A stretch of 36,546 nt of DNA from Rhodospirillales bacterium (GTDB lineage: Bacteria; Pseudomonadota; Alphaproteobacteria; Rhodospirillales; JASLQF01), in contig DASCNF010000235.1 in NCBI GenBank assembly GCA_036011345.1, positions 1 through 36,546 on the forward strand, read 5' to 3'. The notes beneath the pieces are model-generated. The model saw only the letters and a program-made list of their open reading frames with translations. It had not been told where the DNA came from and searched no databases. Position numbers and translations under genes: made by a program. Shown one piece after another: positions 2,139 to 17,868 of this stretch (its first letter is position 1; each line of letters starts with the position of its first letter).

Positions 2139-2375
2139 CTAGAGGCTTACCACTTCTTCGACGGCGAGCGCCATGGCGAGCAGGCGCCGGTCCTCGCCGT
2201 GCTCGCCGGCGACCATGAGGCCGACCGGAGCACCATCGGGCTTGTGGCACGGCAAGGAGACCGCGCACCGGTCGAGGAAATTGAAGATCAGTGTGTTGCG
2301 CAGCAGCAGCACATTGTTGCGGGAGAAGGCCCTCTCGTCCTCGATCTCGGCGAAGGTGGGGGCAGGGTAGAACAA
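2139..2375 (-). pseudogene. C-terminal remnant of an amidase-signature family enzyme
   Basis: APTFAEI...LLLRNTLIFNFLDRCAVSLPCH...PVGLMVAGEHGEDRRLLAMALAVE is the characteristic amidase C-terminus; the N-terminal part including the catalytic signature is absent. Confidence 0.75.
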
Positions 2376-2513: not shown

Positions 2514-2527
2514 TTGACTTAAGTCAA
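2514..2527 (+). promoter_or_regulatory. FNR/FixK-type box (perfect palindrome) with -10 element TACCGT at 2549-2554
   Basis: TTGAC-TTAA-GTCAA; centre 2520.5 puts a -41.5 class II start site at about 2562. Confidence 0.75.
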
Positions 2528-2561
2528 TGCGGAGGCTGTCCGGGGCCCTACCGTGGCCCTT

Positions 2562-2677
2562 ATGGATTCGGGCGGAATACTCGAGCCTGGGGCCGTATAG
2601 GGTCCCTCGTCTCCCCGACGAAAAGTCTCCCTGTCAATCTCGCGGGGCCCTTGGGCCCCGCGATTTTTTATTTTTTT
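2562..2677 (+). ncRNA. Candidate FNR-dependent small regulatory RNA
   Basis: Lies between an FNR box/-10 and a strong + strand intrinsic terminator; three small hairpins (2564-2587, 2589-2606, 2607-2621) and two CTCCC anti-SD motifs; only a 12-codon ORF starts inside it. Confidence 0.55.
2640..2677 (+). terminator. Rho-independent terminator
   Basis: TCGCGGGGCCC-TT-GGGCCCCGCGA inverted repeat followed by TTTTTTATTTTTTT on the + strand. Confidence 0.9.
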
Positions 2678-2710
2678 GAAAGGCCGGGATACGCCGCGTG
2701 GCGCCCGGCG

Positions 2711-3442
2711 TCACAGGTAGTCTTCGTGCTCGAACTCGTCTAGAAGACTGGCGATCCTGGGAACATGCACGGTACGCCCCGAGAAATGGGCGATGCCGTC
2801 GTCCTCGAACTGGCGGATGGTCCGCGACATGGTCTCGGGACGGATGCCGATCATGGCCGCCAGGTCCTGCCGGGACAGTGGAAGCTCCAGGGAAATCGCG
2901 CCGTCCTCGACATCGGTGGCGTAGCGGTCCTTGAGAATCAGCAAGAGATGGGCGAAGCGGGCGCGCACGGTGAGGGTGACGCTTTCGAGGAATTTGTTTT
3001 CGGCCTCGCCCAGATCCTTGACAGCGCGCCACAGGAAACGGTGGCCGAGCGACGGATTGTGGTCGAGCAGGGAGCGCACCGTGCCTTCGCCGATCAAGCA
3101 TACGGAGCCCTTCTTCAGCACCTCGGCGCTAACTTCATGGCCCTGCGCCATGAGCAGCGCCCGGTAGCCAAGCGTGTCCCCCGGATAGGCTAGGCCCAGA
3201 AGCACCGAGTTGCCGTCGGCGTCGATCTTGCGGATGCCGATCATGCCACTCTCGATGCAGACAATGCCCCGGCAGGCGTCCCCCTGATGATAGAGCACCT
3301 CGCCAGGAAGGCATTGGCGAGACTTCTTGGCGTCGTTGATGCGCTTCAGATCGTCTTCGTTGAGGACGCACCATTCGGTGCGTTGCCGCGCCTGACAGCT
3401 AAAACAACCCGCGAGAACGCGGGGGCTAGAACGCCTTGCCAT
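2711..3442 (-). CDS. Crp/Fnr family transcriptional regulator, FNR-type with N-terminal Cys cluster
   Basis: CFSCQARQRTEWC (C-x2-C-x8-C) plus an internal Cys (GSVC); cNMP-binding fold; HTH SRQDLAAMIGIRPETMSR with the E-x-x-S-R recognition helix of FNR proteins. Start set at ATG 3442 rather than the ORF-track 3499. Confidence 0.9.
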   Translation of the reverse strand: MARRSSPRVLAGCFSCQARQRTEWCVLNEDDLKRINDAKKSRQCLPGEVLYHQGDACRGIVCIESGMIGIRKIDADGNSVLLGLAYPGDTLGYRALLMAQGHEVSAEVLKKGSVCLIGEGTVRSLLDHNPSLGHRFLWRAVKDLGEAENKFLESVTLTVRARFAHLLLILKDRYATDVEDGAISLELPLSRQDLAAMIGIRPETMSRTIRQFEDDGIAHFSGRTVHVPRIASLLDEFEHEDYL

Positions 3443-3590: not shown

Positions 3591-3604
3591 TTGATTAATG
3601 TCAA
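3591..3604. promoter_or_regulatory. FNR/FixK-type box between the regulator and the divergent small ORF
   Basis: TTGAT-TAAT-GTCAA; candidate + strand -10 TGCTAACCA about 23 bp downstream. Confidence 0.7.
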
Positions 3605-3720
3605 AGACTCCGGGATCGGGCGTTTGCTAACCAGTCAGGAGACGCGGCTGAGTGCGCACTCTGAAAGCAGGGGGGGAGAGAGGAGCGCGACCGTTGGGTT
3701 GCGCTAATACTTAATAAAAC

Positions 3721-3921
3721 ATGATCGACACAGTTGAAAATAGGCGTGCCGCCAAAAAGTTCATCGAGCGATTCGGCGAGGACGCGGCGCGAGAGGCCAA
3801 GATCCGAGCGGTTGAGCTGCGCGCCGCCGGAGACACCGAGGGCCACAAAAACTGGATAGCCATCCACGGTGAAATCGAGTCCCTTCTGAAGGAAACGCCG
3901 GGCACCGCGACCAAGCAATGA
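3721..3921 (+). CDS. Small hypothetical protein (66 aa, predicted helical)
   Basis: Protein-like composition (RAAKKFIERFGEDAAREAKIRAVELRAAGDTEGHKNWIAI); ATG after an AT-rich leader; resembles small alphaproteobacterial hypotheticals from memory only. Confidence 0.65.
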   Translation: MIDTVENRRAAKKFIERFGEDAAREAKIRAVELRAAGDTEGHKNWIAIHGEIESLLKETPGTATKQ

Positions 3922-17854: not shown

Positions 17855-17868
17855 TTGACAAGAATCAA
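17855..17868 (-). promoter_or_regulatory. FNR/FixK-type box upstream of the hemerythrin-domain gene
   Basis: TTGAT-TCTT-GTCAA on the - strand; overlaps the TGA stop of the upstream E1-like gene; candidate -10 CAATTT 21 bp downstream. Confidence 0.7.

Follow-up and report, generated by a model that had tools for sequence, protein, structure and literature searches.

Does the gap between an amidase remnant and a convergent regulator gene hold a small-RNA gene of its own, and is that gene switched on by the FNR-type box in front of it? The question arises at positions 2514–2677 of DASCNF010000235.1 (assembly GCA_036011345.1), a 36,546-nucleotide (nt) contig of a Rhodospirillales bacterium, the whole of which is called the window below. 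The original prediction saw here a plus-strand small RNA standing alone, with CU-rich motifs exposed and a terminator of its own, and comparison with relatives supports this: the locus is very probably a real small-RNA gene. Its sequence matches, nearly end to end, an RNA family that is common in the order, and its box is kept in two relatives where the upstream neighbours differ.

A predicted small RNA behind an FNR-type box

We propose that 2562–2672 on the plus strand encodes a trans-acting small RNA of about 111 nt, probably assisted by Hfq. From its 5′ end it would run through three hairpins and a single-stranded CUCCCUGU seed to an intrinsic terminator, and it would be the diverged sibling of an RNA that most genomes of the order encode just downstream of a LysR gene. 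The usual promoter signals would have been exchanged for an FNR promoter of class II, its box centred about 41 base pairs (bp) before the start. The likely activator would be the adjoining [4Fe-4S]-type FNR homologue, and with such an activator, we suggest, the RNA would therefore be made at low oxygen. By pairing through its UCCCC loop and CUCCCUGU linker with target mRNAs at their Shine-Dalgarno regions, it would reduce translation, which is how the small RNAs AbcR1/2 and SorX act. Taken as a whole, this account of an FNR-box-driven, rewired sibling RNA acting in trans is the one we favour, with moderate confidence. Its parts are the following.

2514–2527, no strand: FNR/FixK-type box TTGACTTAAGTCAA (TTGAC-TTAA-GTCAA), a perfect palindrome centred at 2520.5, read from the sequence
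2549–2554, plus strand: −10-like hexamer TACCGT, 22–27 nt past the box end (class II geometry)
2562–2672, plus strand: small RNA, predicted to span about 111 nt from a start set by the profile envelope and the box geometry to an end in the U tract
2564–2587, plus strand: hairpin 1, from the minimum-energy fold
2589–2606, plus strand: hairpin 2, GGGGCC-GUAUAG-GGUCCC, from the minimum-energy fold
2607–2621, plus strand: hairpin 3 and first CU-rich seed, TCGTC-TCCCC-GACGA, with UCCCC exposed in the loop (sequence and fold)
2622–2639, plus strand: single-stranded linker AAAGUCUCCCUGUCAAUC, unpaired in the minimum-energy fold and holding CUCCCUGU, the second seed, at 2627–2634
2625–2632, plus strand: second seed copy GTCTCCCT, read from the sequence
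2640–2677, plus strand: intrinsic terminator, a stem-loop at 2640–2663 with a 10-pair stem (9 G-C pairs), then the T tract TTTTTTATTT at 2664–2677
2711–3442, minus strand: convergent gene for a CRP/FNR-family regulator, 243 amino acids from its ATG (Pfam cNMP_binding and HTH_Crp_2)

The box, the TACCGT hexamer, an ATG, the hairpin TCGTC-TCCCC-GACGA, the second seed and the terminator all lie where the original prediction had placed them. Its point about polarity is confirmed too: the U tract exists on the plus strand only, the minus strand reading GATTGACAGG after the stem. Upstream, the nearest plus-strand open reading frame (ORF) ends at 2129 and the neighbour between it and the RNA is a minus-strand amidase fragment; no plus-strand gene could own the terminator. 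The minimum-energy fold of 2562–2677 (116 nt) forms the three hairpins and the terminator at −47.9 kcal/mol.

Membership in a family that is widespread in the order

Comparisons were made between the source genome (G000; 2.33 megabases (Mb), 85.5% complete), a genome of the same genus (G001) and one from another family of the order (G178). Order-wide counts cover 401 genomes, each pattern being paired with a reversed control, and contain genus pairs that are not independent (G000/G001, G023/G143 and G134/G275). BLAST found G001 87% identical across the whole locus, and in other families it returned partial matches of the 3′ half of the RNA, often several copies per genome. The family as a whole was represented by an nhmmer profile built from 38 metagenome sequences, none of them from G000; this profile took the place of a covariance model, the MAFFT alignment being wrong in hairpin 1 and in the terminators. 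Run against the 2.33-Mb genome, it matched 2568–2669 (envelope 2564–2676) over positions 5–106 of 109, with 35.5 bits and an E-value of 1.2e-8, the only strong match in that genome. The sibling in G178 matches the profile over its full length with 51.1 bits.

At the heart of the family is a core of the form GTCTCC-NN-GACG-N1-2-AAG-N-CTCCCTGT, present in at least 120 metagenome stretches; a looser 26-nt version occurs in 252 of the 401 genomes (reversed control 0). Canonical copies keep the core almost invariant as GUCUCCCAGACGUGAAGCCUCCCUGU, and the window fits its degenerate form as GTCTCCCCGACGAAAAGTCTCCCTGT, with 4 substitutions relative to the commonest form. CUCCCUGU is invariant across all aligned family copies, and the window linker reads AAAAGUCUCCCUGU. 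The hairpin 3 loop varies: CUCCCAG in 75 of 81 family copies and CUCCUAG in the other 6, CUCCCCG in the window and G001, and CUUUUAG in the G178 sibling.

With a distribution this broad the RNA is no novelty of one lineage, and it is, moreover, SorX-like below the Rfam threshold. Nowhere in the window does any Rfam family attain its gathering score, and none does so on the canonical family copies. The best Rfam match, both for the window and for every copy tested, is SorX (RF02784), a small RNA that in Rhodobacter sphaeroides depends on Hfq and represses potA (PMC9438474). The window scores 26.1 bits (E-value 6.6e-4, positions 2602–2668) vs a gathering score of 46.6, G001 25.2 bits, and the family copies 21–40 bits.

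The common fold plan (hairpin 1, hairpin 2, seed hairpin, linker, terminator) is shared by G000, G001, G178 and one canonical copy, with stem sequences differing. Hairpin 1 is kept in G001 through one-sided changes (G-U to G-C and U-G to U-A) and has another sequence with the same fold in G178. In hairpin 2, 2 of the 4 predicted pairs have both sides changed, in 15 and 11 sequences of a 71-sequence family alignment. Terminator stems vary among the copies while pairing is retained. Given the MAFFT misalignment, hairpin 2 is the one part of the RNA for which covariation is documented.

What sets the window copy apart is its surroundings. In 7 of 8 loci a LysR-family gene stands immediately upstream of the canonical copy, and in 5 of the 8 a convergent EF-G-like gene lies downstream of it; a tandem pair of family members in G014 likewise follows a LysR gene. 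By the canonical promoter stands a YTGC-N3-GCAR dyad (26 of 32 instances; 24 of 74 metagenome instances vs 1.6% of shuffles), often extended to the 17-bp ATGTTGC-N3-GCAACAT. A second motif, GCAT-N3-TG-N3-T, was found in 24 of 106 canonical upstream regions vs 1.1% of shuffles. FNR-type boxes (TTGA-N6-TCAA) were found upstream of none of 81 canonical copies within 260 nt and none of 32 within 200 nt. The window copy has neither a LysR gene upstream nor the YTGC-N3-GCAR dyad, and because both are absent we class it as a rewired sibling.

G001 and G178 each carry the two forms side by side, a canonical copy and a box-linked copy with an altered loop motif, and the canonical copy of G001 adjoins a LysR gene. 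The contigs of G000 hold neither a canonical copy nor an orthologue of the G001 LysR gene (best match 34% identity); the canonical locus of G000 probably lies in the unassembled part. On these comparisons we take the window RNA to be a diverged, promoter-rewired sibling of the LysR-linked small RNA.

Copies that share only the 3′ module occur as well. The source genome itself has a second small-RNA candidate of this kind on another contig (G000:C204, 2907–3081, minus strand; GCCUCCCUGUUAAACUCGC plus terminator; nhmmer E-value 0.013), with an additional CUCCCUGUUAA copy about 100 nt upstream. Other such copies (genomes G036 and G003; loci L013, L026 and L027) have C-rich loops and TGAAAC ... 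ATATCA/ATAATCA motifs upstream, which may be akin to RpoH-type promoters.

Box conservation and promoter geometry

FNR recognizes inverted repeats of the TTGAT-N4-ATCAA type. The box at 2514–2527 is more than a chance occurrence: the window holds 4 TTGA-N6-TCAA sites vs 0.14 expected, and the 2.33-Mb genome holds 28 TTGAY-N4-RTCAA sites vs 2.8 on average, and 5 at most, in 10 first-order Markov simulations, an enrichment of about 10-fold. Such an excess suggests that an FNR regulon looks active in G000.

Adding the class II distance to the box centre (2520.5 + 41.5) gives a predicted start at 2562, the same figure as in the original prediction, and the 5′ edge of the family profile (envelope 2564, alignment 2568) agrees with it. 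G001 retains the box with a single change in the spacer, even though the gene upstream of it is of the COX1 family vs the amidase fragment in the window. In G178 the box of the sibling reads TTGACTTTGGTCAA and lies at the same distance from the RNA, its end being 96 nt from CUCCCUGU vs 99 nt in the window. At 22–27 nt past the box stand the hexamers TACCGT (G000), TAACAA (G001) and TATACT (G178), a position that puts the box centre about 40–41 bp ahead of a start near 2562 in all three siblings. Since the box stays with the RNA at the same spacing in both G001 and G178 despite other neighbours, we assign it to the RNA. Box, hairpins, seed and terminator are thus conserved together, as had been asked of the locus from the start.

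How far does this arrangement extend? The pattern box-N50-110-CTCCCTGT occurs in 26 of the 401 genomes (reversed control 6–7), and on inspection 11 of the 26 matches are small-RNA-like, with 3′ module and terminator, in 7–8 genera. As a control, a window of the same width placed further upstream (N130-190) gave 19 genomes, with 1 of the 19 loci small-RNA-like. A scan of a genome-contig database returned 7 stretches, 5 in records outside Alphaproteobacteria, which were taken as chance matches uninspected, and 2 real ones.

From promoter geometry, conservation and the 10-fold enrichment of boxes we infer that activation by FNR is the most likely role of the box; granted that the RNA is real, we think it reasonably probable.

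The neighbouring regulator as candidate activator

The convergent gene codes for the sole CRP/FNR-family protein of the assembly with both an FNR-type E--SR helix (RPETMSRTI) and N-terminal cysteines. Its N terminus, CFSCQARQRTEWC, has the spacing C-X2-C-X8-C, with a fourth cysteine in VCLIG. FnrL is its best NCBIfam match, at 85.6 bits vs a 300-bit cut-off. It is identical to its G001 homologue at 236 of 243 residues. One other HTH_Crp_2 protein over cut-off is present; its helix, RETVAR, is of the CRP kind and it lacks a cysteine cluster. The neighbouring regulator is the likely protein to bind the box at 2514–2527. An Hfq gene is present in G000 as well.

The idea that the RNA is linked to its own regulator stood up within the genus, in G000 and G001, and not elsewhere: among 10 other box-linked loci, that of G001 is the only one flanked by a CRP/FNR gene. 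The linkage between RNA and regulator gene is a feature of this genus only.

Alternative readings

The alternative that survives best grants the small RNA and denies the activating role of the box. The RNA would then be constitutive or answer another signal, and the box would repress, serve the minus strand or be a leftover, which we consider unlikely. A palindromic box is able to act either way, and the −10 is weak: TACCGT agrees with TATAAT at 3 of 6 positions, its letters are not conserved in G001, and a scan with the sigma-70 consensus found no promoter at the locus. The SorX precedent can also be turned this way, being reported as RpoHI/HII-dependent (PMC5036791) and, in the ChIP-seq paper (PMC4263372), without an established effect of FnrL. 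A contig from an RNA library, moreover, runs over the box. Against this, the box travels with the RNA while G001 and G178 have other upstream neighbours, the three siblings share equal spacing and a −10-like hexamer at 22–27 nt, and boxes are about ten times commoner at this distance than in the equal-width window further upstream. Nor is there a good −10 for a minus-strand start near 2479.

The RNA libraries bear on this alternative and on the next. Parts of the stretch occur in 20 runs, 6 of them RNA runs, of which 4 were examined as contigs, a form that gives no strand, ends or level. The regulator gene is covered in all 4, between 3062 and 3506. A 155-nt metatranscriptome contig (run X15) at 2448–2602 spans both the box and the predicted start but falls short of the terminator; it carries G2572A, stops inside hairpin 2 and so covers the first ~40 nt of the RNA, and its left end is at most 2 nt from a minus-strand T-rich tail at 2450–2459. 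It could be library DNA, antisense read-through from the regulator gene or the product of an upstream start. It neither supports nor excludes the RNA, yet it is not what a discrete 2562–2672 transcript alone would be expected to leave.

The same contig gives the second alternative some footing. Here no independent small RNA exists, and the sequence would belong to the 3′ end or terminator region of the convergent regulator gene or to a zone of antisense read-through. In favour of this, the terminator stem is a palindrome situated 47 nt from the regulator stop codon, and the contig could be minus-strand read-through that ends near the T-rich tail of a hairpin at 2460–2475. We regard this as quite improbable: the T tract is on the plus strand only, the whole 100-nt body matches a family that does not adjoin CRP/FNR genes elsewhere, and the minus-strand T-rich tail is absent in G001. 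For that last reason a minus-strand terminator at 2460–2475 was rejected as a conserved feature.

That the transcript is a small mRNA or dual-function RNA, translated as the 12-codon MDSGGILEPGAV whose ATG (2562–2564) falls exactly on the predicted start or as the listed 50-codon frame at 2527–2679 (50 amino acids), is highly improbable, for G001 has CAG for ATG 2562, ACG for ATG 2527 and a 1-nt deletion that breaks the longer frame, the ATG of G178 opens a frame encoding an unrelated sequence, and what the family conserves is structure and seeds rather than a reading frame. Both ORFs were rejected as genes on the loss of start codons and frame in G001, and with them the leaderless peptide that had been suggested.

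Several further points weigh against our own account of an FNR-activated sibling RNA. G000 and G001 are closely related (their regulators are 97% identical), so that 87% identity at the locus says little alone. The full-length box-linked siblings number three (G000, G001 and G178), and the other box-linked loci share the 3′ module only. The fold is modest in significance, with z between −2.2 and −2.5 (−2.47, with 2 of 200 shuffles folding as well). The regulator falls under every NCBIfam equivalog cut-off (FnrL, FixK and Fnr), so that its oxygen sensing is to be taken as predicted. At 85.5% completeness, a further FNR-type regulator or canonical copy may sit in the unassembled part of the genome. 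To these must be added the weak hexamer and the contig described above; no discrete transcript is evidenced in the contigs of the 4 RNA runs, where 2603–3061 is uncovered and uninformative.

Candidate targets

Of 2202 crude start regions, 20 have a longest exact seed complement of at least 9 nt, among them those of a cysteine/methionine pyridoxal-phosphate enzyme, an ABC ATPase, a sulphur-transport protein, a glutaredoxin, an M24 peptidase and an OHCU decarboxylase; this count is uncontrolled and rests on crude gene calls, and we draw no conclusion on targets from it. Two other sets of pairings were rejected: RNAduplex targets of the seed region, which ignore the structure of the RNA itself and come out as long, unrealistic duplexes, and cofolds with crude gene calls, which gave messy pairings involving the 5′ hairpins.

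Other features around the locus

Two further features flank the RNA and the regulator gene.

2476–2513, no strand: conserved A-tract stretch upstream of the box, near-identical in G001
3591–3604, no strand: second FNR-type box TTGATTAATGTCAA, upstream of the regulator gene

The A-tract stretch may be an UP-like or bent region. It is not shared with G178, and further upstream of it the G000 and G001 sequences diverge. More broadly, 2460–2513 contains phased A tracts and the hairpin 2460–2475, which pairs better on the minus strand, and is near-identical in G001. Beyond it, the 78-amino-acid ORF at 2139–2375 (minus strand) aligns only to positions 381–454 of 457 of the amidase profile (the last ~75), and looks like the C-terminal remnant of an amidase gene.

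Besides the box at the RNA, the window has three more of the FNR type, at 255–268, 3591–3604 and 17855–17868. One of these three lies between the start of a dihydroorotate/dihydropyrimidine-dehydrogenase-like gene and a thiamine pyrophosphate enzyme gene. Together the window boxes suggest a local cluster of FNR-controlled genes, with possible autoregulation. The box at 3591–3604 may serve autoregulation of the regulator or a divergent ORF of 66 amino acids at 3721–3921 (plus strand). This ORF lies downstream of the box, whose centre + 41.5 falls at 3639; it has no match in Pfam or NCBIfam and may be an FNR-controlled small protein.

Comparison with known small RNAs

Precedents exist for the mechanism as well as for the FNR link, chief among them SorX. 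In enterobacteria, small RNAs that depend on FNR have been studied in detail. FnrS of E. coli and AniS of Neisseria are FNR-activated small RNAs that repress mRNAs when oxygen is scarce. The likeness to the window locus lies in this logic, an FNR box driving an mRNA-repressing small RNA under low oxygen; they differ in coming from other phyla or classes and show no sequence or family relation in the Rfam scans of the window. FnrS is mentioned in the FnrL ChIP-seq (chromatin immunoprecipitation sequencing) study (PMC4263372). The literature covered reports no Rhodospirillales FNR-linked small RNA of this kind; surveys of SorX or AbcR homologues outside Rhodobacter and Rhizobiales could bear on novelty.

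MmgR (alpha-r8; RF00519, suhB) has a similar layout of hairpin, CCUCCCU linker and terminator. Canonical copies of the family score 29–35 bits against RF00519 (threshold 41), and no match to it was found in the window at E-values up to 10. The canonical family also carries a dyad of the TGC-N3-GCA type near its promoter, as mmgR does (PMC8401924), whereas the window copy has no dyad.

There is also a likeness to AbcR1 and AbcR2 (alpha-r15, RF02345). These are sibling anti-Shine-Dalgarno RNAs whose two CU-rich seeds occupy a hairpin loop and a linker, and the canonical copy of the family to which the window RNA belongs stands beside a LysR gene just as AbcR stands beside LsrB/VtlR in Rhizobiales. 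The GCAT-N3-TG-N3-T motif of the canonical upstream regions has the form of the VtlR/LsrB box (PMC7486931). In Sinorhizobium meliloti the M1 motif of AbcR2 is reported as CUCCCC (PMC5461406), the same as in the window loop. AbcR1 is driven by LsrB and AbcR2 by RpoH1, with shared seeds behind promoters that differ (PMC8844928), and we propose the same logic for the window copy. The differences are equally plain: the seed hairpin of the window RNA is the third and not the first, there is no GUUCCC or UUCCCCUC second motif, and the window copy is beside a CRP/FNR gene, not a LysR gene. A search of 5 genomes with RF02345 (threshold 40 bits) found no match at the window locus, and none in G001 or G014, at E-values up to 1; the best match elsewhere, at another locus of G178, reached 25.2 bits.

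SorX comes closest. By model alignment and fold, the 3′ two-thirds of the window RNA follow the same plan, a hairpin leading to single-stranded CCUCCCUGU and then to the terminator, while the window RNA has two additional 5′ hairpins. SorX is also described as cut from the 3′ untranslated region of an OmpR-type gene (PMC9438474), whereas the window RNA has no co-oriented gene upstream. SorX, SorY and the mmgR consensus all have CCUCCCU(G/A) just ahead of the terminator, and the CUCCCUGU motif is found in SorX and SorY; the three look like branches of one design.

It is at SorX that the only alphaproteobacterial hint of an FNR link that we found in print is located. A ChIP-seq study reported FnrL sites at two putative promoters, those of RSs0019 and RSs2461, any regulatory effect being left open (PMC4263372), and RSs2461 is SorX (PMC5036791). 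True SorX genes in two genomes of another family (70.4 and 69.8 bits) have canonical FNR-type boxes 67 and 72 nt before CUCCCUGU, and in that family (f126) the pattern of box plus SorX was found in 20 of 121 genera sampled (control 0), so that SorX genes often carry such a box in class II position. Boxes at the SorX genes of this family would explain the published FnrL site. The f126 SorX genes with canonical FNR-type boxes also carry a conserved CTTTAA-like −10.

More tentatively, one may ask whether a near-universal alphaproteobacterial anti-Shine-Dalgarno module of hairpin, CUCCCUGU and terminator has been repeatedly duplicated behind FNR boxes, both in a number of Rhodospirillales-type genera and, as SorX, in Rhodobacter-type ones, so that low oxygen would feed the AbcR/SorX-type regulon and the CUCCCC loop of the window copy would silence partly distinct mRNAs in anoxia. 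We offer this as a possible reading that is somewhat harder to believe than not. If it is true, low oxygen would be a conserved, so far uncharacterised input to that regulon. The underlying RNA is in any case very widespread (the 252 genomes counted above) while lying outside every Rfam family at threshold, and a single conserved RNA body is seen behind two promoter types, LysR-linked and FNR-box-linked, sometimes within one genome. The locus thus makes a clean comparative case, and with SorX and fnrL mutants in existence, a low-oxygen input to the SorX/AbcR-type network becomes directly testable in Rhodobacter.

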